The notes under the pieces: model-generated
Told to the model about the DNA's origin: nothing
What the model saw: the letters and a program-made list of their open reading frames with translations, nothing else
Databases searched by the model: none
NCBI RefSeq assembly: GCF_035285525.1
Contig: NZ_JAYKGW010000201.1
Span: forward strand, 1-12,770
Direction of reading: 5' to 3'
DNA length: 12,770 nucleotides
From: Okeania sp.
GTDB taxonomy: Bacteria; Cyanobacteriota; Cyanobacteriia; Cyanobacteriales; Microcoleaceae
In this document: positions 1 to 12,770 of the stretch, one piece after another
How the letters are laid out: the number at the start of each line of letters is the position of its first letter
Position numbering within the stretch: position 1 is the stretch's first letter
Program-made: the position numbers and the translations under genes

Positions 1-125
1 ACAGCCTCAGGCAAGTACACCATCTCAATCAAGGCCACAGCCTCAGGCAAGTACACCATCTCAATCAAGGCCACAGCCTCAGGCAAGTACACCATCTCAA
101 TCAAGGCCACAGCCTCAGGCAAGTC
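1..125 (+). repeat. Perfect 36-bp in-frame tandem repeat (3 full copies plus a diverging partial copy)
   Basis: ACAGCCTCAGGCAAGTACACCATCTCAATCAAGGCC occurs identically at 1-36, 37-72 and 73-108. A fourth copy starts at 109 and diverges after about 16 nt. Confidence 0.95.
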
Positions 126-741: not shown

Positions 742-1650
742 ACCTCTCCCTAAAAGGAAGAGGATTGAATAAAAGGAAAAAATTTATTTTTCTTGGTCGA
801 TTAGATATAGTTAGGGAACCCATCTATCTCACCCTTTCGGAAACTAGGCTTTTTATAGCGCGCAGCGTTTCATGCAGGCTCAAGCGCCTTTCGCTGCGCG
901 ACATATAAAGCGAAGCGCAAAAACGACAGCTTTTTAACCCTTGAAAGGGGAAACTTCAAGGCGCGAATTATTTAATTATTTAATTATTAATCCTTCGGTA
1001 ACCCAGGTTCCGCACGTCAATTTGTAACACTAGAGTATTATAATAATTTGGTAGTTTAGTAAGTACTTATACTGTACAAAGTATCTTTATTTAACTTGAT
1101 CCTGAGTCAAATTCTCAAGAAAATATTAAGTATTTATGCTTAATTAATTGTTGACTTTTATTGACCATTATGATTTTTTCCTGAATTATGACTCCTTACT
1201 TCCCCTCCTGGGAAGGCTTAGGGGTAAGTTGACCCCTGACTCCTAATTTAACACTACATTTTGACGTGCGAAATTTAGGTTATAACTAGGTATGCACAAA
1301 AAAAGCTTGACTACATTAAATTTTGTAAATTATACCAATGTGCGCACTTAATATTTACACATTATTTTCTGTACACCTTTTCGCTTACTGTATGCACTTT
1401 CAGCTAGACATTGTAAATACCTAGGCACTCATTGCTATAACTCAAATCAAGGGGGTGAAAGAAAATAAACTTCACTATTTCAAGCCTCTAGCAACAGCTG
1501 CGAGGTACTGATAACTGATATGATCTACTCAATAGAGATTAGGAAATTGCTGAATAAAATAAGGAATAAGGTCAATTTTTCTGAGTAAGTAAAGAGAATA
1601 ATAAAAAAGGAAATTTCAGATTTCAAGCCTTCCTATTTCAGGGAGTACTA

Positions 1651-1678
1651 ATAACTGATAACTGATAACTGATAACTG
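1651..1678. repeat. STRR-type heptamer tract (ATAACTG x4) ending 2 nt before the MORN gene start codon
   Basis: Four perfect heptamers at 1651-1678 are followed by AA and then ATG at 1681. Confidence 0.9.
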
Positions 1679-1680
1679 AA

Positions 1681-2418
1681 ATGACCATGTTGCTATTAAT
1701 AAAACAACTAACTAAAGTAATATTAACAGGTTCTTGTCTAGGATACATAATTATGATATCCTATTATCAGCCTTTAATGGCACAAGAACAAACAGAAGCA
1801 CCTTTTTGTGAAGGTAATCCCCCTACAGGCAGAGTTAAGTGTAATTATTCTAATGGAGATAATTATTCTGGAGATTTTGTCAATGGAAGACCACAAGGGA
1901 GCGGTATATATGTCTATGCTAATCGCGATCGCTATGAGGGGCAATTTCGTAATGGTCTTCCCAATGGACAAGGTACTTTTATATTTTCCAATGACGCTAG
2001 GGTTACAGGAGTATTCCAAAATGGACAAATTAGCTCTGGGACAATTATTTTCGCGAATGGTGATCGGTTTGTTGGAGATTTTAGATTAGTCCAGAATCTC
2101 TCTAGTAGTGTGATTAGCAGTCAGCCTACAGGTAAAGGTCAATTTATTTACGCTAATGGTGATCGTTATGAGGGAGAATTCTTTGCTGGAGAACCTTTTG
2201 GTCCAGGAGTTTTTACTCGCAGTGATGGAATACGATGTCAAGGAGATTTTTACAACGCAGCACTAGATGGCAAAGGAAATTGTACATATCCTAATGGAAT
2301 TCGCTATGAAGGGGAACTAAGGGGTGGAATACCCCATGGAGTGGGGATAATTATAGATTCTGAAGGAAAGCGATTTCCTGGAGTTTTCCGTAATGGTCAA
2401 AGAGAGGAAGAAACATAA
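1681..2418 (+). CDS. MORN repeat-containing protein with an N-terminal hydrophobic (signal/anchor-like) segment
   Basis: 245-aa ORF. The N-terminus is LLLIKQLTKVILTGSCLGYIIMI. It is followed by repeated Y.NGD.YEG.F..G...G.G units (YSNGDNYSGDF, YANRDRYEGQF, FANGDRFVGDF, YANGDRYEGEF, YPNGIRYEGEL), the classic MORN pattern. Confidence 0.9.
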   Translation: MTMLLLIKQLTKVILTGSCLGYIIMISYYQPLMAQEQTEAPFCEGNPPTGRVKCNYSNGDNYSGDFVNGRPQGSGIYVYANRDRYEGQFRNGLPNGQGTFIFSNDARVTGVFQNGQISSGTIIFANGDRFVGDFRLVQNLSSSVISSQPTGKGQFIYANGDRYEGEFFAGEPFGPGVFTRSDGIRCQGDFYNAALDGKGNCTYPNGIRYEGELRGGIPHGVGIIIDSEGKRFPGVFRNGQREEET

Positions 2419-2438
2419 TATTATTTTGATTAATACTA

Positions 2439-3343
2439 GGGCGTGTCATCAATTACAGAGGTTGACATTAAAGTATACTATACTGATCAACAATAACAAC
2501 CATAGGACGGCTCTAAATGACTAGACGTTATGGCTTCCGTGATGACCAATGGGAGCTACAAATTTACGACCAGGACGTAAAGGAACTGTCCTTCCGAAAG
2601 CACAGGACAATCGTCTCTTTGTGGAAGCTGTTTTATATAGATATGAAGCTGGAATTCTCTGGAGAGACTTACTATTATTGATTTGGGGACTTCCGCATTG
2701 TCCATACCAGTTTGAGTCCTTGGAGCCGTTCAGGAGTCTGGAACAGACTATTTTCAGCTCTAGCTGAAGATGCAGATAATCAATGTGCCATGATCGATGC
2801 TACTATTGTTCCTGCTCATCAACATAGTGCTGGAGCCAAGGAGAGTAGTGCAGAACAGGAAGATATTAGTCTTAGCTTTCCTAGGATTGAGTACCAACAT
2901 ACATGGGGTAGTAGATGCTCTCGGTAATCCCACCAATTTTTTTTAACTCCAGGCCAAGCCTGCGACTTAGATAGAGCAGATATTCTCTTGCCCCTTGTAG
3001 AAACTGATGCCATTTTGGCTGATAAAGCTTATGATACTCAGAAACGAGTAATTGGGCTTTTAACCCAAAGCGGAATAGAAGTAGTAATTCCACCTAAGAA
3101 AAATCGCAAAGTAAAGTCGTCACTACGATGAAATATTGTACAAAGCACCTCATCTCATAGAAAATTTCTTCGCTAAACTTAAACAGTATCGAGCCATCCC
3201 TACTAGGTATGATCAGCGTTCAGTAAACTTTCTAGGGGGAATTTATTTGGTAGCCTCAGTCATTTTATGAGCTCGCGCGATTACCATTTTCTAGAAAGCA
3301 GAGAATAACTCTAATGTCAACCTATTTAATTTATCACACACCC
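2439..3343 (+). mobile_element. Decayed IS5-family insertion sequence (IS427/IS1031-like size class, ~0.9 kb)
   Basis: The imperfect terminal inverted repeats are 2439-2473 (gggcgtgtcatcaattacagaggttgacattaaag) and the reverse complement of 3309-3343 (gggtgtgtgataaattaaataggttgacattagag), about 29/35 identical. CTAG sits at both junctions (2436-2439 and 3343-3346). An IS5-type transposase remnant lies inside. Confidence 0.8.
2517..3270 (+). pseudogene. IS5-family DDE transposase (DUF4096 N-terminus plus DDE_Tnp_1_2 type), multiply frameshifted
   Basis: Recognisable segments are scattered over three frames. MTRRYGFRDDQWE is in frame 3, from 2517. LRPGRKGTVLPKAQDNRLFVEAVLYRYEAGILWRDL is in frame 2. 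WSRSGVWNRLFSALAEDADNQCAMIDATIVPAHQHSAGAK is in frame 3. GLSTNIHGVVDALGNPTNFF is in frame 1. TPGQACDLDRADILLPLVETDAILADKAYDTQKRVIGLLTQSGIEVVIPPKKNRK is in frame 3, after a shift at the T8 run 2937-2944. YDEILYKAPHLIENFFAKLKQYRAIPTRYDQRSVNFLGGIYLVASVIL* is in frame 1, with the stop at 3268-3270. That is at least five frame changes, more than one programmed frameshift can explain. Confidence 0.85.
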
Positions 3344-3438: not shown

Positions 3439-3648
3439 ATGGTTCAACGTGGTTCTAAAGTTCGGATTTTACGGAAAGAATCCTACTGGTATCAGGATAT
3501 TGGTACAGTTGCTTCTATTGACAAAAGTGGCATTAAGTATCCAGTTATTGTCCGCTTTGACAAAGTAAACTACAACGGTTTTAGTGGTAGTGCAGGCGGC
3601 GTTAATACTAATAACTTTAGTATGGATGAAGTTGTAGAGGTAAAATGA
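3439..3648 (+). CDS. psaE: Photosystem I reaction centre subunit IV (PsaE)
   Basis: The 69-aa product [68 protein letters not shown] matches the highly conserved cyanobacterial PsaE sequence as I remember it. A purine-rich stretch (aaggga) precedes the ATG. Confidence 0.95.
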
Positions 3649-3753: not shown

Positions 3754-3962
3754 AGCATTCAGCTATTAGCTATTAGCTATCAGCCATTAATATCAAATCT
3801 ACCTTTAGAGAATAAAATTAATATTGACAAAAACTCCAAATCTTGCTAAGGTTTGGTTTCCAAACCTCTACAATATTGCATTGTACCAATACTACTGGAT
3901 TTGATATTATTTATTAAATTTATTCTCTAAAGCTAATAGCTCTTAGCTGACGGCTGAATGCT
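3754..3962. repeat. Composite inverted-repeat element between psaE and mutM (MITE-like or structured spacer)
   Basis: There are four perfect inverted pairs: agcattcagc 3754-3763 / gctgaatgct 3953-3962; gctattagc 3762-3770 / gctaatagc 3932-3940; atatcaaatc 3790-3799 / gatttgatat 3899-3908; ctttagagaataaa 3803-3816 / tttattctctaaag 3919-3932. A central perfect hairpin is aggtttgg-ttt-ccaaacct at 3849-3867. Confidence 0.6.
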
Positions 3963-4056
3963 GACGGCAAAAAATATCTCAGATAAATTTACTAGGAAAA
4001 AATTTTGGCAGTATCTATCTATAATAATAATAAAACTGTAGAAAATAGTTAGCATT

Positions 4057-4962
4057 GTGCCAGAACTGCCAGAAGTAGAAATAATAAAACGAGGTCTCAA
4101 TCAACTGACTCTCAATAAACAAATATTGGGTGGGGAAGTGTTGCTAGAACGCACGGTTGCTCACCCTACTTCTATTGATGATTTTTTAGATGGGTTACAG
4201 GGAAAGGCGATCGCCAGGTGGCATCGAAGAGGTAAATATTTGCTAGCCCAACTCTACAAATGGAAGAAAGAAACTTTAGAACTTAACTTGGTTAAACAAG
4301 AGGAGGATGGTTGGTTAGGAGTACATCTACGAATGACAGGGCAACTTTTATGGGTAAATCCAGAAGCAGAACTACACAAACACACCAGGGTTAGATTATT
4401 TTTTGGTCATAAATCAACAGAAGACAAAAAAAATTCTACCCATGAATTAAGGTTTGTAGACCAACGTACTTTTGGTAAAATGTGGGGAGTAAGACCAGCA
4501 ACAGAAATATCTCACATTATTACAGCTCTGAAACAACTAGGTCCAGAACCTTTTTTCCCAGCATTTTCCCCTGAGTATCTTAGCAAAAAATTACACAAAA
4601 GCCATAGACCTATCAAAACGACTCTTTTAGACCAAACTATTATTGCGGGGTTAGGTAATATTTATGCTGATGAAGCTCTATTTTTAAGTGGTATTAGACC
4701 AACAACTTTATCTAAAGATTTGACTAATCACCAATTAGAACAGTTACATTTAGCTATTATTAAGGTTTTAGCAACTTCTATAGATAAAGGTGGTACAACT
4801 TTTAGCAATTTTTTGAATGTTCAAGGAGTTAATGGTAATTATGGCGGTGTAGCTTGGGTTTATAATCGTTTTGGTCAGCCATGTCGCATTTGTGATACAT
4901 CTTTGGAAAAAATTAAGTTGGCAGGAAGAACTACCCATTTTTGTCCTCAATGTCAATCTTAG
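4057..4962 (+). CDS. mutM: Formamidopyrimidine-DNA glycosylase (Fpg/MutM)
   Basis: A GTG start gives (M)PELPEVE with the catalytic Pro2/Glu3. Other motifs are LGVHLRMTG, FVDQRTFG, the H2TH region GLGNIYADEALF, and the C-terminal zinc finger CRICDTSLEKIKLAGRTTHFCPQC. At 301 aa it carries two apparent lineage-specific insertions (YKWKKETLELNLVKQEED and KSTEDKKNST). Confidence 0.93.
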   Translation: MPELPEVEIIKRGLNQLTLNKQILGGEVLLERTVAHPTSIDDFLDGLQGKAIARWHRRGKYLLAQLYKWKKETLELNLVKQEEDGWLGVHLRMTGQLLWVNPEAELHKHTRVRLFFGHKSTEDKKNSTHELRFVDQRTFGKMWGVRPATEISHIITALKQLGPEPFFPAFSPEYLSKKLHKSHRPIKTTLLDQTIIAGLGNIYADEALFLSGIRPTTLSKDLTNHQLEQLHLAIIKVLATSIDKGGTTFSNFLNVQGVNGNYGGVAWVYNRFGQPCRICDTSLEKIKLAGRTTHFCPQCQS

Positions 4963-4993
4963 GGGATAGGCAGTAGAGAGTAGGGCGTAGGTA

Positions 4994-5016
4994 AGTTATC
5001 AGTTATCAGTTATCAG
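4994..5016. repeat. STRR-type heptamer tract (AGTTATC x3 plus a partial copy)
   Basis: The tract is agttatc agttatc agttatc ag. The same heptamer recurs at 5779-5791, 7121-7133 and 9028-9037. Confidence 0.85.
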
Positions 5017-5490
5017 CTTTTTTAGTTTTTATGTTTGAACATTAGATAAAGTTATGATTTTGAAATTTTGGCTTTAATATTTTAAATTTTACTACTTTTG
5101 CGTGACTGTTAAATGGGGAAATTTTTTTGGGTTGGTTAACGAGGTTTCAAGATTTTTAGCGCTTTTTTTTGATTTTGTGATATTATAGACATAGAGTATA
5201 ATTGGAGCCTTTTATTTCTTAATTTAGTTTTATAACTGTTATTTCTTATTATGCTGTTGTTTTGGTCTGTTTTTGTCTGAATTTGCTTTGCTTAAAATGA
5301 CTTTTTTTATCTGTCCGTTTTTTGCTGTTTTGACAAAGTGTTGATTTTGTGATAGCAAAGCAGGTTTTTTCGTTTTTTTTAATTGTATTTTGTTGAATAA
5401 TTAGTCTAGAGGATGGGCAAACAAAAACCAATAATTTTATCATATCACAGTTGGCTTGAGGATGCAACCCTAATTCTCTGATCGGCGCGA
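5005..5490 (+). other. Conserved T-rich non-coding segment, copy A (paralogous to 9027-9514); it precedes tandem array A
   Basis: It aligns colinearly by eye with 9027-9514 at roughly four fifths identity. Shared blocks are ggttaacgaggtttcaa.atttttagcgcttttttt, aaaatgacttttttt, tgttttgacaaagtgtt.gttttgtgatag, ttgaataattagtctag and aggatgcaaccctaattctct.atcggcgcga. No ORF is conserved between the copies. Confidence 0.8.
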
Positions 5491-5718
5491 TTTTTTTTGG
5501 GGAGTGCTTCAGAGAATGAAAATTTTGAGTAATTAGGGAAGGTTTGATAATCAAGCGATCGCTACTTTATTTCCAGGGGTGCTTCAGAGAATGAAAATTT
5601 TGAGTAATTAGGGAAGGTTTGATGGTAGAGGAAATTTCGACTTTTCCTGAGTGAGGGTGCTTCAAAGAATGAAAATTTTGAGTAATTAGGGAAGGTTTGA
5701 TAATCAAGCGATCGCTAC
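5491..5718 (+). repeat. Modular tandem array A (3 units of 75-77 bp)
   Basis: The units are 5491-5565, 5566-5641 and 5642-5718. Each has a T-run, then the core GG(G)TGCTTCA(G/A)AGAATGAAAATTTTGAGTAATTAGGGAAGGTTTGAT. The tail is either aatcaagcgatcgctac (HIP1 module; units 1 and 3) or ggtagaggaaatttcgac (unit 2). Confidence 0.9.
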
Positions 5719-5963
5719 CTTCTTCCTCTTTGTCAGCGATGGGTGTACCTCAAGGGCAAGGGAAAGCGCTGTCATTTCAGTTATCAGTTATTTTGATAGA
5801 CATTATATTTTAGTCTTTAATAAACCTAGTTTCTCTGCTTCAATAGAAAGAATTTAAGATCTGACATCTAACTTCTAAAAAATCTGTATAAGAAAAAATA
5901 TCTACTTAATCTAATTCCCCATTAAAATTTAATAGAGACAAGAAAAGAAAAGGAATCCATATT

Positions 5964-6182
5964 ATGGCAGATATTAAAAAAGGTAGTTTAGTTCGTGTTG
6001 TCCGAGAAAAACTGGAAAATAGTATAGAAGCTAAAGCCAGTGACAATAATTTTCCTCCTTATATTTTTGAAAGTAAAGGAGAAATTGTTGATACTAGAGG
6101 AGATTATGCTTTTGTTAAATTTGGTAAAGTTCCGACTCCGAATATCTGGTTGCGACTAGACCAATTAGAAAAATTTGAATAA
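5964..6182 (+). CDS. ndhO: NAD(P)H-quinone oxidoreductase (NDH-1) subunit O
   Basis: The 72-aa product [72 protein letters not shown] fits the remembered NdhO pattern (KKG.LVRVV.EKLENS.EAKASD..FP.Y.F.SKGEI...[12 protein letters not shown]). The small size and the neighbourhood with psaE/mutM are consistent. Confidence 0.8.
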
Positions 6183-7325: not shown

Positions 7326-7904
7326 CTATGAATCAACTAATAATCCATAGGGAAGGGGATAGCTTTCTTCATCGTCACCGGTTTCAAACCAGTAGTGCAT
7401 ATGAGCTTCGACAAACTCCTCACGACTAATAGAACCTGACTTATCTGAATCAATACTATCAAAAGCTTGGTTCGCTTGTTCCGATTGCTCTACTCCAGTA
7501 TATATTGCTAGATACTTTCGGTACTCTTCACGAGATATTTCTCCAGAATGATCCGTGTCAATGATATCGAAAAAAATCTCGTTTTTATGTCTACCTGCTT
7601 GAAGTACTTCATCTGATGCTTCAGCCACAGTCTTTGCAACTTTAGTGATTAATTCTTCTTCAGTAATTTGAGTATTATCATCAACTGGTTCTCCTCCAGC
7701 TATAAAATGCTGAAACAGAGAATGACACATTTCGCGAATTTTTTCGTTCTTTGATGAATCAGTTTGCAGTCTAATTAAACGATTGGCAATTTCTTCAAAG
7801 TCGGAGAGGGTTAAAACCTCATTTTTATCGACGTCCATAAGTTTGAAGTAGGTCTTCATTTTAGCACGCCAAATACTTGATGATATAAACTTTTCAGGAG
7901 ACAT
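7326..7904 (-). CDS. EF-hand calcium-binding protein of the sarcoplasmic-calcium-binding-protein (SCP)/calerythrin type
   Basis: 192-aa ORF. The EF loops are DVDKNEVLTLSDFE (atypical, E at the Gly position), DTDHSGEISREEYRKY and DSDKSGSISREEFVEA. The N-terminal IWRAKMKTYFKLMDVDKNEVLTLSDFEEIANRL and the C-terminal WFETGDDEESYPLPYGLLV resemble, from memory, invertebrate SCP (..W.QKMKTYFNRIDFDKDG.I...DFE.MAERF ... FWGPLV). Confidence 0.85.
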   Translation of the reverse strand: MSPEKFISSSIWRAKMKTYFKLMDVDKNEVLTLSDFEEIANRLIRLQTDSSKNEKIREMCHSLFQHFIAGGEPVDDNTQITEEELITKVAKTVAEASDEVLQAGRHKNEIFFDIIDTDHSGEISREEYRKYLAIYTGVEQSEQANQAFDSIDSDKSGSISREEFVEAHMHYWFETGDDEESYPLPYGLLVDS

Positions 7905-8031: not shown

Positions 8032-8043
8032 TCCTCCGGAGGA
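8032..8043. promoter_or_regulatory. 12-bp perfect palindrome TCCTCCGGAGGA containing the TCCGGA (DIF1-like) hexamer, ~130 bp upstream of the EF-hand gene
   Basis: The palindrome is read directly, with TCCGGA at 8035-8040. No convincing -10 element was found at the canonical spacing, so the regulatory role is speculative. Confidence 0.2.
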
Positions 8044-8229: not shown

Positions 8230-9018
8230 TCACCTTGTCATAGTAGAAATAGTTTTTCCTAGTGACATTAATGTTCGTTTAAAGTTATCTGCACGACTCC
8301 GAAAATCATCACCTTTTCCTAAATCAAATGCCATTCCTTTGACTCCAGATAATAATTTTAAATAAACTTTACTTTCAGTGTCTTGAGTAGCAATAACTAA
8401 ATAAAATTGGTCTATTCCTACAGTTTGAATTTCTCTTACTACTTCCTCAATATTTTGAGTTTCTTGATCGGGAATATGTGGAGGAGCGTCTGTGATTAAA
8501 ACAATAACTTTATTACTGTCTGAATCAAAAGGTTGACGTAATGCAAACATCACTGCATCTAAACTACTTTCTGGTGCATCTCCTCCTCCATAAGCTTTTA
8601 GTTTAGATACTTCTTGACGAAAAAGATTGGGATTATTTGTAAATACTTCGCCATTAATTTTTAACACTCTATGTTCTTCATTAATTAGGCGATCACGAAA
8701 TTCTATTAAACCAACTCTAACTCTGACTCCATCTTTTTCTATAGTATCGGCAAATTCCATAATTGTTTCTTTTATGGCATTAATTTCACCCTCCATACTG
8801 CCAGTACAATCTAACACAAACATAATATCTGCTTGGCGTTTGGCTAAAATTTCTGCTGTTAGTTTTAGGGCTTCAACAAGTTCTTCTGGCGAATGACTTT
8901 TTATAGTTGGTTTTGATCTTGATGTTGTTTTTGGTTTTGTTTCTAATTCTGTACCGCATTGTTGACAGGATTTAGCGGTATCTAAATTTGAAGTTCCGCA
9001 ATTAAGGCAAGTTTTCAT
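8230..9018 (-). CDS. Zinc-ribbon plus von Willebrand factor type A (vWA) domain protein
   Basis: 262-aa ORF. The N-terminal zinc ribbon is CLNCG-x10-CQQCG. After a low-complexity linker, the vWA domain has the MIDAS motif DCTGSM (DxTGS) and a downstream VIVLITDAPPH strand. Confidence 0.88.
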   Translation of the reverse strand: MKTCLNCGTSNLDTAKSCQQCGTELETKPKTTSRSKPTIKSHSPEELVEALKLTAEILAKRQADIMFVLDCTGSMEGEINAIKETIMEFADTIEKDGVRVRVGLIEFRDRLINEEHRVLKINGEVFTNNPNLFRQEVSKLKAYGGGDAPESSLDAVMFALRQPFDSDSNKVIVLITDAPPHIPDQETQNIEEVVREIQTVGIDQFYLVIATQDTESKVYLKLLSGVKGMAFDLGKGDDFRSRADNFKRTLMSLGKTISTMTR

Positions 9019-9026
9019 TTCAGCGA

Positions 9027-9514
9027 TCAGTTATCAGCTTCTTTAGTTTTCATGTTTGAAAATTAGATAAAGTTATAGTTTTAAAATTTTGGTTTTAATA
9101 TTTTAAACTTTACCATTTTTGAGTGACTTTTCAATAGGGAAATTTTTTTGGTTTGGTTAACGAGGTTTCAATATTTTTAGCGCTTTTTTTCAATTTTGTG
9201 ATATCGTATACTTATGATATTCTTGGAGCATTTTATGTCTTGATTTAGTTTTATACCTGTTAATTCCTATTATGCCGTTATGTTGGGTTATTTTGTTCTA
9301 AATTGTCTTTGCTCAAAATGACTTTTTTTCTCTGCGCGTTTTTTTCTGTTTTGACAAAGTGTTAGTTTTGTGATAGTAGGGCATATTTTTTGTTTTTTTG
9401 GGAATTAGATTTGCATTGAATAATTAGTCTAGTTTATGAACGAGTAACACCAAGTGTTTTTATTCTACCACAGGTGCTTTCAGGATGCAACCCTAATTCT
9501 CTTATCGGCGCGAC
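9027..9514 (+). other. Conserved T-rich non-coding segment, copy B (paralogous to 5005-5490); it starts 9 bp from the vWA start codon
   Basis: It is colinear with copy A (see 5005-5490). The vWA gene (ATG at 9018, minus strand) has no upstream sequence other than this segment. Confidence 0.8.
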
Positions 9515-10032
9515 TTTTTTCAGGGGTGCTTCAGAGAATGATTGGGGGGGTAGTCAGGGAAGGTTTGATTGTCAGGCGATCGCTACTTTTTTTCAGGGGT
9601 GCTTCAGAGAATGATTGGGGGGTAGTCAGGGAAGGTTTGATTGTCAGGCGATCGCTACTTTTTTTCAGGGGTGCTTCAGAGAATGATTGGGGGGGGGTAG
9701 TCAGGGAAGGTTTGATTGTCAGGCGATCGCTACTTTTTTTCAGGGGTGCTTCAGAGAATGATTGGGGGGTAGTCAGGGAAGGTTTGATGGAAAAGGAAAT
9801 TTCGACTTTTTTCAGGGGTGCTTCAGAGAATGAAAATTTTCAGTAGTTAGGGAAGGCTTGATTGTCAGGCGATCGCTACTTTTTTTTTCAGGGGTGCTTC
9901 AGAGAATGATTGGGGGGTAGTCAAGGAAGGTTTGATGGAAAAGGAAATTTCGACTTTTTTTCAGGGGTGCTTCAGAGAATGATTTGGGGGGGGAGTAGTC
10001 AAGGAAGGTTTGATGGAAAAGGAAATTTCGAC
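9515..10032 (+). repeat. Modular tandem array B (7 units of 72-78 bp)
   Basis: Unit ends are at 9586, 9658, 9733, 9806, 9879, 9954 and 10032. The core is CAGGGGTGCTTCAGAGAATGATTGGGGGGTAGTCAGGGAAGGTTTGAT. Unit 5 keeps the array-A-like GAAAATTTTCAGTAGTTAGGG version. Tails alternate between tgtcaggcgatcgctac (units 1, 2, 3, 5) and ggaaaaggaaatttcgac (units 4, 6, 7). The G-run length differs between units (6, 7 and 9 G). Confidence 0.92.
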
Positions 10033-10191
10033 TTTTTCTTGGGGAGCAGCCAGAATCCAGAATCCAGGAGGAAGAGGAATCAGAATCACAGAAGAGCTAG
10101 CCAAAAAAATATTCCCTTAATTTTCTCCCATATCTTGCCCAAAATCCTAGAATGCATGATTTTTCGGGAACCGTACCAGAATTACCTAAAA

Positions 10192-10214
10192 GCTGGTACT
10201 CTATTAGTACCTGC
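10192..10214 (-). terminator. Candidate intrinsic terminator of the kinase-FGE gene
   Basis: The minus-strand RNA is gcaGGUACUaauagAGUACCagc followed by UUUU. The stem is 6 bp plus 2 bp with one mismatch, ~52 nt after the stop codon. The stem is AU-rich and short, so the call is weak. Confidence 0.35.
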
Positions 10215-10265
10215 AAAAGCTGAAACCAATTCTTAAACAACTGACAACTAAAAAAGACTAATTGA

Positions 10266-12368
10266 CTAGAAACGGACAGGTAAGACGACACGAAAACCCC
10301 TATTGATGCTGAACCGATCCCCACTGCTACAACTACGCCTGGCACATCGACAATCCCTAGAATAGTTGACCCAACTACCACCACGGATAACTCTGTGCAG
10401 TCTATATTTACTTTGTCCCCAAATTTCCCAAGCAGTTCCATCCGTAGGCGCTCCATTATAATTATTGTGCCAAAGATCCTGACACCATTCCCAGACATTC
10501 CCGTGCATATCATATAAACCAAAAGCATTGGGTGGAAAACGTCCCAGTGCTGTTGTTTGTTTTAGAAATTTACCTTGAGGAGCGTTACCATAAGGATAGT
10601 TACCGTCGTAGTTAACCAACTCAGGCGTTATAGTTTCTCCAAAATAAAAAGATGTAGTCGTCCCTGCACGACAAGCATATTCCCACTGACTTTCGCTAGG
10701 CAACCTGTAAATTTTCCCAGTTTTCTTGCGTAGCTTTTTACGAAAGTTTGTAGCTTCATCCCAACTCACACTTTCCACTGGGCGACTTCCTCCTTTAAAT
10801 CGAGAAGGATTATTTCCCATAATGGCTTGGTACTGGTTTTGAGTAATAGGATATTTGCTGATAAAGAAAGGTTGGAGAGTAACTTTATGTTGCAGATTTT
10901 CATCAGACTCTCTTTCAAACTCATCTTTTGGAGAGCCCATAAGAAAATTTCCCCCAGGAATATAAACCATTTCCAATACCACCTTCTCATCTAAATATTC
11001 TCTAAAAAATTCTGCTTCCTGGCGACGGCGACTAATTTCTTGTCCTTGGGAGTTGACCTTTATTACCTCAAAGCTAAATTTATCCGGTATTACTCCTTTA
11101 GGAAAGGGAGATTTTTTTTCAGAAGTCTCTTTTGGCATCCTCTCTTTAGGAGGTAAAGGTAACGGCTTTAGTGGTTTTGTGGGAAAGGGAGATGTTTCTT
11201 CTAGCTTCTCACTTCTATTTCCCAAGTCTTTCAGAAAATTTATAAATTGCGATATTTTTGTTTCTGACTCCTGAATGCTGGTTTCTGACTCCTGAATGTT
11301 GGTTTCTGACTCCTGAATGTTAGTTTCTGACTCCTGAATGTTAGTTTCTAACTCCTGAATGCTGGTTTCTAACTCCTGAATGTTGGTTTCTAACTCCTCA
11401 CTTCTGACTTTTGACTTTTGACTTTTGAATTGTATCTTCCACCATTCCTGAATATTTCCAGGACGACCTTCCTGCTCAAAAACCAAAGCCGACATTACCA
11501 ACTCTTGCCAAGGAGACTCTAAATCTTCTGGTTGCCAACCTTTTTGTTTTGATAAACGTTGCAAAGCATTAGGAGGTAACTGCCCAGTCAACATTTCATA
11601 AACCATCATCCCCACTTCAAAAATATCGCTCTCTACTCCCACTTCTCCTCCCCCAATAACTTCTGGTGCGGCATAAGCTTCCGTAAAAGTCCGAGTACTA
11701 GAAGTACTCATAGAAGTTCCGAAGGTTTGTTTTGCCGAACCAAAGTCGATCAATACTAACCGCCCTTCTGGGGTAAGTAAGATATTGTCGGGTTTTATAT
11801 CCAAGTGAAAAATTCCTTGTTGATGTACTGCGGATAATGCTAAGACGAGAGGAGAGATTATTTCTGCGATTTTCTCAGGGGAAAATTTTTTCTGAGGTTG
11901 AGAGTCTAATTCTGTTCTGAGAGTTTTTCCCGTGACTAACTCCATGACTAGATAGGCCGTATCATTTTCCTCAAATAAATCTTTTACTCTTACCACATGA
12001 GGGTGATCGAGTTTTGCTAATATTTGTCCTTCCCGGAGAAACCTTTGCAAACCCCGTTGAAATATTTCCTGTTGATTTTTGGGGATGGTAAAACCGCCAG
12101 TGGTAGGGTGGCGGAAAGCGTGGTTTTGGGGATAATATTCTTTGATGGCGACTGTTTTTTGTAATGATTTATGATACCCCTGATAAGTTACGCCAAACCC
12201 TCCTCGACCCAGGGCGTAGTTTATTTGGTACTTATTGCCATGAAGTTTCCTACCTGATGCAAGTAGATCGCGGGTGAGTGATGGTAGGTATGCGCCACAG
12301 TTGGGGCATAGTTTTGTGTTTAGTGGAAGACCGTCAGTATAGCAACCTGAGTTTAAGCAACGCATCAT
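10266..12368 (-). CDS. Multidomain protein: N-terminal zinc ribbon, Ser/Thr protein kinase, heptad-repeat/Pro-rich linker, and a C-terminal FGE/SUMF1-type (formylglycine-generating enzyme fold, C-type-lectin-like) domain
   Basis: 700-aa ORF. The zinc ribbon is C-x4-C-x11-C-x2-C at the N-terminus. Kinase motifs are GRGGFGVTY, VAIKEY, HLDIKPDNILL, DFGSAK and APE. The linker is (ETNIQEL/S)n followed by PFPTKPLKPLPLPPK. The FGE domain has YIPGGNFLMGSP, RLPSESQWEYACRAG, GLYDMHGNVWEWCQD and RGGSW...GFRVV. Confidence 0.92.
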   Translation of the reverse strand: MMRCLNSGCYTDGLPLNTKLCPNCGAYLPSLTRDLLASGRKLHGNKYQINYALGRGGFGVTYQGYHKSLQKTVAIKEYYPQNHAFRHPTTGGFTIPKNQQEIFQRGLQRFLREGQILAKLDHPHVVRVKDLFEENDTAYLVMELVTGKTLRTELDSQPQKKFSPEKIAEIISPLVLALSAVHQQGIFHLDIKPDNILLTPEGRLVLIDFGSAKQTFGTSMSTSSTRTFTEAYAAPEVIGGGEVGVESDIFEVGMMVYEMLTGQLPPNALQRLSKQKGWQPEDLESPWQELVMSALVFEQEGRPGNIQEWWKIQFKSQKSKVRSEELETNIQELETSIQELETNIQESETNIQESETNIQESETSIQESETKISQFINFLKDLGNRSEKLEETSPFPTKPLKPLPLPPKERMPKETSEKKSPFPKGVIPDKFSFEVIKVNSQGQEISRRRQEAEFFREYLDEKVVLEMVYIPGGNFLMGSPKDEFERESDENLQHKVTLQPFFISKYPITQNQYQAIMGNNPSRFKGGSRPVESVSWDEATNFRKKLRKKTGKIYRLPSESQWEYACRAGTTTSFYFGETITPELVNYDGNYPYGNAPQGKFLKQTTALGRFPPNAFGLYDMHGNVWEWCQDLWHNNYNGAPTDGTAWEIWGQSKYRLHRVIRGGSWVNYSRDCRCARRSCSSGDRFSINRGFRVVLPVRF
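11260..11400 (-). repeat. In-frame 21-bp tandem repeat (6 full plus 1 partial copy) inside the kinase-FGE gene
   Basis: GTTTCTGACTCCTGAATG(C/T)T(G/A) recurs every 21 bp from 11260, and the last three copies have GTTTCTAAC. It encodes ELETNIQ/ESETNIQ heptads. It is followed by the heptamers cttctga cttttga cttttga cttttga at 11401-11428. Confidence 0.95.
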
Positions 12369-12454: not shown

Positions 12455-12770
12455 TTGTCTATTTACCTGAGAATTTTTCATTTTCTGAAGCACCCGAATT
12501 TAAGAAGTGGTTGCCTGAGCGATCGCCTCCTTGTCTATATTACCTGAGAATTTTTCATTTTCTGAAGCACCCGAAATTGAGAAGTAGTGTTTTGACTCGG
12601 AAAAATCCTTCTATTTACCTGAGAATTTTTCATTTTCTGAAGCACCCGAATTTAAGAAGTGGTTGCCTGAGCGATCGCCTCCTTGTCTATATTACCTGAG
12701 AATTTTTCATTCTGTGAAGCACCCGAAATTGAGAAGTAGTGTTTTGACTCGGAAAAATCCTTCTATTTAC
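12455..12770 (-). repeat. Modular tandem array C (at least 4 units; inverted relative to arrays A/B; truncated by the window end)
   Basis: The reverse complement of the core is CGGGTGCTTCAGAAAATGAAAAATTCTCAGGTAA, matching the array A/B core GGTGCTTCAGARAATGAAAA. Tails alternate between a HIP1 module (cctgagcgatcgcctcc) and ttttgactcggaaaaatcc. The 152-bp double units 12459-12610 and 12611-12762 differ at only 2 positions. Confidence 0.9.

Follow-up and report, generated by a model that had tools for sequence, protein, structure and literature searches.

The spacer between mutM and ndhO on a 12,770-nt contig of Okeania sp. (the window, whose coordinates are used for copy A, copy B and array C) contains a non-coding element, copy A, in which a T-rich leader is followed by tandem units of about 75 bp. 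Each unit opens with a 17-nt motif, the head, and the leader closes in a proximal module of about 110 bp. A similar element, copy B, lies further along the contig. What kind of element is copy A, how did it come to lie between these two genes, and does it act on ndhO, toward which the initial annotation of the sequence had oriented it? Copy A belongs to a repeat family present in Okeania, Trichodesmium and Dapis. Judged from the sequence, we give about an even chance to the reading that this family is a lineage-specific, satellite-like mosaic of intergenic repeats carrying a portable predicted promoter. In architecture it would be analogous to the BOX elements, bacterial interspersed mosaic elements (BIME) and mycobacterial interspersed repetitive units (MIRU), with unrelated sequence.

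Copy A belongs to a family that numbers more than 100 arrays

In the window, the 17-mer head GGTGCTTCAGAGAATGA occurs 14 times with up to three mismatches, compared with 0.03 occurrences expected: three times in array A (5503, 5578 and 5656), seven times in array B (9525-9966) and four times on the minus strand (12478-12723). The minus-strand heads mark array C, a third array beyond the two copies described initially. Tandem Repeats Finder (TRF) and unit dissection bore out the two-tailed tandem structure proposed for arrays A and B, with units of 71-78 bp and alternating tails. The tail modules are GCGATCGC/HIP1 and GGAAATTTCGAC, and the middle module switches between AAAATTTT and a G-run. 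The unit head in array A reads (A/G)GTGCTTCA(G/A)AGAATGA. TRF gave a period of 72 bp with a 147-bp higher-order period for array B (9515-10014) and a 152-bp higher-order period for array C, in which HIP1 tails alternate with GGATTTTTCCGAG and whose end is separated by 87 bp from the downstream kinase/FGE-sulfatase gene, which starts at 12368. The 147- and 152-bp periods represent dimeric higher-order repeats of ~150 bp. Together, the three arrays and two leaders make up ~16% of the 12.8-kb contig.

A genome collection was scanned with the pattern GGTGCTTCANARAATGA, many single matches of which are due to chance. Tandem arrays were found in T. erythraeum IMS101 (8 units), Trichodesmium metagenome-assembled genomes (MAGs), at least five Okeania assemblies, two Dapis strains, a Microcoleaceae MAG and a tar-biofilm cyanobacterium with 35 units. 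A metagenome scan for two heads 65-93 bp apart added 101 stretches (related loci are designated by L numbers), giving a total of ~115 parsed arrays with a modal period of 76-77 bp. The family thus comprises more than 100 arrays, and copy A is not half of a two-copy curiosity. All arrays share the quasi-palindromic 17-nt head GGTGCTTCA-N-A-R-AATGA, which contains TTCA-N5-TGAA; because the head was itself the search pattern, statistics on its conservation are inflated and headless arrays would have been missed. The unit bodies of window arrays A/B, window array C, IMS101 and L010/L040 are unrelated, the head being their sole likeness. Since the head is conserved across genera and the bodies are not, it is probably recognized by a trans-acting factor, either a DNA- or an RNA-binding protein.

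Most arrays (77 of 99) fall into class I, with units consisting of the head, a hairpin CTATTGC-N7-GCAATAG, GGAAAATTTCAC and a C-rich tail, and lack a proximal module. Arrays A, B and C of the window belong to a second, module-associated class. Where the period is 200-290 bp, every unit includes the whole module. A MITE-like (miniature inverted-repeat transposable element-like) sequence of ~125 bp, bounded by the terminal inverted repeats GACTGACACA..TGTGTCAGTC, was seen repeatedly directly beside class I arrays (L013, L044, L189, L213, L133, L061 and L171), apparently inserted at TAG within a unit.

Neither the head sequence nor such arrays in Trichodesmium or Okeania were found in the literature searched; a description may exist elsewhere, and the family is apparently undescribed. 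Clustering of 220 flanking open reading frames (ORFs) yielded no constant partner protein. Among the candidates, TnpB, reverse transcriptase, the kinase/FGE protein and a KAP NTPase, none was consistent; TnpB lies near a few loci, at a distance of 0.7-4 kb. A phage or plasmid origin was rejected, as neither a viral contig nor a plasmid matched the element.

Copy A is an insertion upstream of an intact ndhO-proximal region

The gene order psaE-mutM-ndhO is kept in Okeania SIO2F4, two more Okeania assemblies, the P01_H01 MAG and Trichodesmium MAG_R01. In these five relatives the mutM-ndhO spacer measures 137, 173, 173, 540 and 623 bp, compared with 1002 bp in the window; the five spacers contain no head or module, and no head was found across these 10-17-kb loci. 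Since the element is absent from all five orthologous spacers, copy A is an insertion, as initially supposed. From the array end (5718) to the ndhO ATG (5964) the distance is 246 bp, close to the 245 bp first given. The last ~40-70 bp before this ATG (from 5893-5923, depending on the relative) are 79-90% identical to those of the relatives, in high-scoring segment pairs that continue into ndhO, which therefore retains its own upstream region.

The two leaders are colinear end to end (5005-5490 versus 9027-9514), with 80.0% identity over 541 columns, in agreement with the earlier estimate by eye, and both are 47% T on the plus strand, with 6-7 runs of T6 or longer. The leader does not behave as one unit, as had been assumed: only its last ~110 bp (5392-5502), the proximal module, are conserved across genera, and the other ~390 bp are common only to copies A and B and the metagenome contigs L169 and L128, with 77-88% identity. 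A four-way alignment confirmed that these leader copies share no ORF. A small ORF in the module or leader was rejected, as reading frames differ among copies.

Copy A had been described as bracketed by AGTTATC tracts, taken as a sign of insertion into a short tandemly repeated repetitive (STRR) tract. TRF detected both heptamer tracts (Table 1); insertion into an STRR tract found no confirmation, such tracts being normal just upstream of start codons in this lineage. The associated placement in the Nostocales was a mislabel, the host being Okeania sp. (Oscillatoriales/Microcoleaceae). The final unit of the left tract, CAGTTATCAGC, belongs to the similarity common to the four leader copies. The arrangement (CTGATAA)n-CTGAA-ATG stands directly upstream of several gene starts, including the MORN gene (1681), the vWA gene in copy B and uvrA in L026. 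This position directly before the ATG of unrelated genes suggests that the tracts are parts of 5' untranslated regions, and not random STRR-like filler.

The leaders of copies B, L169 and L128 run up to a gene start, from which a heptamer tract separates them; the leader of copy A does not. As leader A and its tract are followed by no gene, copy A may be a duplicate of a gene-proximal cassette from which the gene is missing. In L169 and L128, the leader ends beside the start of a gene whose product has a DGMGG motif; the product appears PP2C-like by eye, and its 140-aa fragment gave no match to Pfam. A second, inverted module in L128 points at a weakly TerB/DUF533-like gene, and the module of L026 points at a gene 79 bp away. 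Inverted module pairs facing each other across arrays, in a foldback-like arrangement, were seen in L128 (reverse complement 190-1060) and L117 (4790-6662).

The proximal module carries a predicted promoter directed away from the array

Read along the head strand, the module consists of box 2 GTTGAATAAAAAGTCATGCGTATGGGCGAAC, an A/T-rich TAnnAT-ATCA segment, ATGCAA, a GC palindrome and a T-run, followed by the first head. Module A accordingly shows box 2 GTTGAATAATTAGTC.. (5392-5423), a symmetric -10 region, ATGCAA, the GC palindrome and a T8 run. For alignment, 55 modules were read on the strand complementary to the heads. The columns TTGC (the -35 element), TG, and T1, A2 and T6 of the -10 element are invariant or nearly so, while the spacer sequence is free. 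The pattern [-35]-16..18-TAnnnT fits 54 of the 55 modules, compared with 18 of 11,000 composition-matched shuffles. TGn is present in 51 modules and the spacer is 17 nt in 49, with 21 different TAnnnT hexamers represented. This pattern looks like the result of selection, and the module is predicted to carry an extended -10 promoter of the sigma-70 type, directed away from the array. The predicted start in module A is ~5432 on the minus strand, facing the leader and the 3' end of mutM; in module B it is ~9455, also on the minus strand, and the vWA ATG follows ~437 nt downstream.

The polarity toward ndhO proposed initially is thus not upheld: the sole family-wide promoter signature is on the opposite strand, pointing toward mutM in copy A, and ndhO retains its upstream region. 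Any local effect of copy A would most likely be transcription from the outward promoter through the leader, antisense into the mutM 3' end, and not the provision of a leader for ndhO.

Downstream of the predicted promoter lies a second strongly conserved block, with a GA-TTTTTATTCAAC motif and ..CATGACTTTTTATTCAAC. Similarity between families ends right after TTCAAC, where the outer boundary of the module may lie. The first ORF past a terminal module runs in the direction of the promoter in 11 cases and against it in 14; a role as a dedicated gene promoter was therefore rejected as a rule, although it holds sometimes. A structured small RNA encoded by the module was also rejected, RNAalifold giving no consensus pairs and the proposed hairpin being only 42% Watson-Crick.

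The arrays behave as variable DNA repeats

The arrays behave as variable-number tandem repeats (VNTRs), with unit number differing at orthologous loci that share flanks (12 units in L132 versus 4 in L154; 6 in L166 versus 11 in L218). At their end stands a head whose body is truncated, and their first unit is often decayed. A separately assembled 1.1-kb contig from Logan SRR19514071 (L121), equivalent to window 3913-5023, ends 19 bp inside the leader; this break, and the many metagenome contigs that end inside arrays, are consistent with the repeats breaking assemblies. The arrays show no preference with respect to gene orientation: upstream genes are on the same strand in 38 cases and opposite in 33, and downstream genes are opposite in 39 and on the same strand in 24.

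The class I hairpin stem is 83% Watson-Crick over 289 units, and the exceptions (105 G-T, 113 A-C and 116 other) show no strand asymmetry. Both orientations of the 7-nt loop are represented: TCTATAC 77 times versus GTATAGA 33 times, TCCATAC 10 versus GTATGGA 9, and GACCTAC 7 versus GTAGGTC 5. Such flipping fits a DNA palindrome and not an RNA under selection. As stated initially, arrays A and B have no terminator hairpin (scanning 4900-6000 found one inside mutM only, and 8950-10300 none), and the element matches no known RNA family: an Rfam search of the window returned only snoR130 at E=0.53, below the gathering threshold, and nine related loci gave nothing at E<=0.1.

Several other candidates were rejected. 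ARAGORN found no tRNA or tRNA-like units, which the ~76-nt period might have suggested. A 13-aa reverse-strand peptide of class I, MDSEIFLLLRIEQ, is kept in 84 of 388 units, with scattered lengths. Folding energy was abandoned as a strand indicator, because the array classes gave conflicting answers and base composition confounded the comparison: the reverse strand folds better in 42 of 65 arrays, while the head strand is favoured in A (-35.0 versus -12.5 kcal/mol) and B (-67.6 versus -18.5 kcal/mol), a preference attributable to the G+T richness of these two arrays. A comparison of G-T with A-C pairs in a hairpin between tail and head was also set aside, being biased by arm composition.

Proposed mechanism and alternative explanations

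The observations may be accommodated in the following scheme. The full element would consist of the ~110-bp module with its outward predicted promoter and a tandem array of 72-86-bp units, in which each head is followed by interchangeable hairpins, HIP1, GAAATTTC-type palindromes and homopolymer runs. Arrays would expand and contract by slippage and unequal exchange, forming the ~150-bp higher-order repeats, with hairpin loops flipping; and the element would be copied into new intergenic sites in either orientation. Copy B forms the upstream region of the vWA gene, and copy A would be a gene-less duplicate of a 5' cassette of this kind (array, module, leader and heptamer tract) placed between mutM and ndhO. 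In this scheme the promoter would be active, the head would be kept by a trans-acting factor, and copy A would derive from a gene-proximal copy.

Several points weigh against this scheme. Neither a head-binding protein nor a transposase was found, and no terminal inverted repeats or target-site duplications were recognized that would define a mobile unit. A purely selfish satellite would leave the strong conservation of the head unexplained. The statistics on this conservation are inflated, as noted above. The promoter is represented by a sequence signature, and a second candidate extended -10 element, on the plus strand of the leader (5178-5186), is conserved in four copies, with TG, T1, A2 and T6 invariant and the three middle bases variable; it and the module A signature face each other, 250 bp apart. 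In addition, the leader and arrays A/B are strongly enriched in T over A and G over C on the plus strand, and the plus strand of A/B folds far better than the minus strand, both of which would also fit a plus-strand RNA.

The main rival explanation takes up this last possibility, and we consider it tentative and probably not correct. The arrays would be multi-copy small-RNA genes on the head (plus) strand, either with a promoter in every unit (a NARAAT -10-like box, as in NsiR1) or as a leader-driven precursor cut at the heads, like a CRISPR array without cas genes. The head does contain (G/C/T)A(G/A)AAT ahead of a start region rich in purines, every A/B unit closes in a run of T6-9 immediately ahead of the following head, and the plus-strand TGnTAnnnT kept in the four leaders and the folding of A and B point the same way. 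The tail CACCTC of a class I unit can pair with GGGGTG in the head that follows, many of the pairs being G-T, in the comparison whose arm-composition bias was mentioned above. For T. erythraeum, Pfreundt et al. (2014) reported an array without cas genes, made up of four 34-nt repeats, that is transcribed and processed (PMC4143802); the libraries of that study omitted RNAs <300 nt (PMC4143802). However, the first position of the putative -10 element is T in a minority of heads, with no -35 or TG alongside, and the arrays lack a terminator-like hairpin plus T-run. The better folding of the opposite strand in most of the arrays compared, the lack of strand asymmetry among hairpin mismatches, the flipping loops and the lack of a consensus structure or Rfam match also argue against it. 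The broader proposal that head arrays form a lineage-wide functional system confined to the Trichodesmium clade, whether as a cas-less leader-driven array cut into ~75-nt RNAs or as sites for a head-specific protein (REP/RAYT-like or a regulator), is in our view unlikely. If it is true, some of the 40% non-coding fraction and of the abundant non-coding RNAs (ncRNAs) of Trichodesmium would be explained.

We regard as distinctly unlikely the explanation that the heads are operator- or enhancer-like sites through which a lineage-specific DNA-binding regulator controls the outward promoter, the cassette serving signalling or conflict genes (vWA, PP2C-like, kinase/FGE-sulfatase and TerB-like). In every module the head dyad TTCA-N5-TGAA lies ~30-45 bp upstream of the -35 element; in copy B, L169, L026 and both modules of L128, the promoter signature is aimed at a gene start; and the arrays of L128 and L117 sit between two diverging modules. 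Set against this are the 11 co-directional and 14 opposite first ORFs past terminal modules, the distance from box 2 to the head, which ranges from 96 to 110 bp without helical phasing, and a dominant 76-77-bp period that is not a whole number of helical turns. Class I does without any module, and up to 35 sites per array would be atypical of operators. Very improbable is the initial view, in which ndhO would have copy A as its 5' leader or as a regulatory RNA element. Its heads do point toward ndhO, 246 bp downstream, but in relatives ndhO is served by 137-173-bp spacers without the element, and the conserved ndhO-proximal region is intact downstream of the insertion. Family-wide, moreover, the downstream gene is convergent in 39 cases and co-directional in 24, and the paralogs B, C, L169 and L128 have unrelated neighbours.

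Comparison with known repeat systems

The pneumococcal BOX element, boxA-(boxB)n-boxC, is a non-coding intergenic mosaic with dispersed copies in either orientation to genes. Like it, the Okeania element has a conserved end module beside a variable number of tandem ~45-80-bp units. It differs in lacking sequence similarity, in belonging to another phylum, and in its invariant 17-nt head and extended -10 signature in the end module; no boxC-like second end was found at copy A. With the BIMEs of enterobacteria, built from repetitive extragenic palindromic (REP) sequences, the element shares an intergenic mosaic of small palindromes and linkers, and a short motif presumably kept by a trans-acting protein. 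REPs, however, alternate in orientation, carry a 5' GTAG and are accompanied by a gene for a REP-associated tyrosine transposase (RAYT), whereas the Okeania units are direct repeats with another motif, and no Y1 (RAYT) transposase or constant partner was found among the flanking ORFs. The MIRU-VNTR loci of Mycobacterium tuberculosis likewise consist of 40-100-bp tandem intergenic units, present at many loci in strain-variable number, but MIRUs have no promoter module or modular tails, and the sequences are unrelated.

NsiR1 of heterocystous cyanobacteria (PMC9045159) is also a cyanobacterial tandem array of short, non-coding, slightly divergent units. It is located upstream of hetF, each copy having a DIF1 (TCCGGA) promoter at -35 and a terminator (PMC9045159). 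The window differs in containing no hetF by Pfam and no unit terminators, and TCCGGA occurs once, at 8035, outside the arrays. The AT-rich leader followed by an array with a period of ~72-77 bp resembles a CRISPR locus; here, however, the segments between heads are near-identical and drawn from 2-3 recurring modules instead of being unique spacers. Pfam detected no Cas domains in the eight largest ORFs of the window, and Rfam gave no CRISPR-DR match. The arrays do not correspond to a type III toxin-antitoxin system either, with units of 72-78 bp (ToxI is ~36 nt) and with ndhO and the convergent kinase as downstream genes in place of a ToxN/AbiQ-type endoribonuclease gene. With regard to a MITE or IS element, no collinear terminal inverted repeat was found at the ends of copy A, which is flanked by direct heptamer tracts.

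Nitrogen fixation by Trichodesmium and its relatives is of global importance in the sea. The Trichodesmium genome is ~40% non-coding (PMC4143802). This fraction has been attributed to ncRNAs, insertion sequence (IS) elements and introns. A repeat family with an invariant 17-nt motif and more than 100 arrays would contribute concretely to the non-coding space of this clade, and could supply new promoters and antisense transcripts beside genes. Because their unit number varies between strains, the arrays are potential markers for strain typing, and they would explain assembly breaks at such loci in these genomes.

Features of the window and minor observations

Coordinates are collected in Table 1, together with the heptamer tracts of related loci.

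Table 1 Features of the Okeania sp. window (positions in window coordinates unless a related locus is named).
Feature	Position	Strand	Evidence and remarks
MORN-repeat protein	1681-2418		Pfam
PsaE	3439-3648		Pfam
MutM	4057-4962		Pfam
Heptamer tract (AGTTATC)x3.3	4994-5016		TRF; left edge of copy A
Leader A, subfamily-specific part	5005-5391		47% T on plus strand, 7 runs of T6 or longer; no conserved ORF
Candidate extended -10 TGaTATTAT in leader A	5178-5186	+	Four-way alignment, inverted repeat I12; putative
Proximal module A	5392-5502		Conserved across genera (Okeania, Dapis, Trichodesmium loci)
Predicted extended -10 promoter, module A	5439-5467	-	-35 TTGCAT 5467-5462, spacer 17 nt, TG 5447-5446, -10 TATGAT 5444-5439
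Array A	5503-5718	+	3 units of 75, 78 and ~63 bp; tails HIP1 / GAAATTTCGAC / HIP1
Heptamer tract (TCAGTTA)x2.1	5777-5791		TRF; right of copy A
NdhO	5964-6182		Pfam
EF-hand protein	7326-7904	-	Pfam
Zinc-ribbon + vWA protein gene	8230-9018	-	Pfam; downstream of module B promoter signature; context, outside the repeat
Leader B	9027-9414		Far end 9 bp from start codon (9018) of minus-strand zinc-ribbon/vWA gene
Proximal module B	9415-9524		
Predicted extended -10 promoter, module B	9462-9490	-	-35 TTGCAT 9490-9485, spacer 17 nt, TGg, -10 TAGAAT 9467-9462
Array B	9525-10032	+	7 units, 71-76 bp; 4 HIP1 tails and 3 GAAATTTCGAC tails
Ser/Thr kinase + FGE-sulfatase protein	10266-12368	-	Pfam
Array C	12455-12770	-	At least 4 units, running past the contig end; head as in A/B, different body
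Heptamer tracts 5' of unrelated genes	Window 1647-1679, 9019-9035; L026 3336-3380; L128		

The interval 2436-3340, ~900 bp with short overlapping ORFs only, corresponds to the position at which the relatives have a DUF6391 gene between the MORN gene and psaE; it is possibly a decayed mobile element that replaced this gene, and its part 2436-2554 matches L204. A dispersed non-coding element of ~100-300 bp is represented at 703-1001, with GATAATT heptamers and a CCTCTCCC..GGAAGAGG hairpin region. It shows 72-97% identity to at least 25 cyanobacterial loci among those compared, and no Rfam match. TRF also detected a perfect tandem repeat at the contig start (1-124, 36 bp x 3.4) and, within the kinase gene (11260-11428), a 21-bp x 6.6 repeat followed by (ACTTTTG)x4; both are likely coding repeats.

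Arrays B (plus) and C (minus) converge around the kinase gene. In its product, the C-terminal segment between LRGGSW and GFRVV (~10266-10400) is strongly divergent among four homologs (window, L137, L164 and L220) with conserved flanks, and in all four a module or array lies just downstream of the 3' end. Divergence of this kind would be the pattern of a target of a diversity-generating retroelement (DGR); a multi-target DGR is known in T. erythraeum (PMC4143802, PMC10907252). A reverse transcriptase (RVT_1) that bears the motifs LGNLTSQ and YVDD is encoded in L169 (70-1152) and converges on an array.

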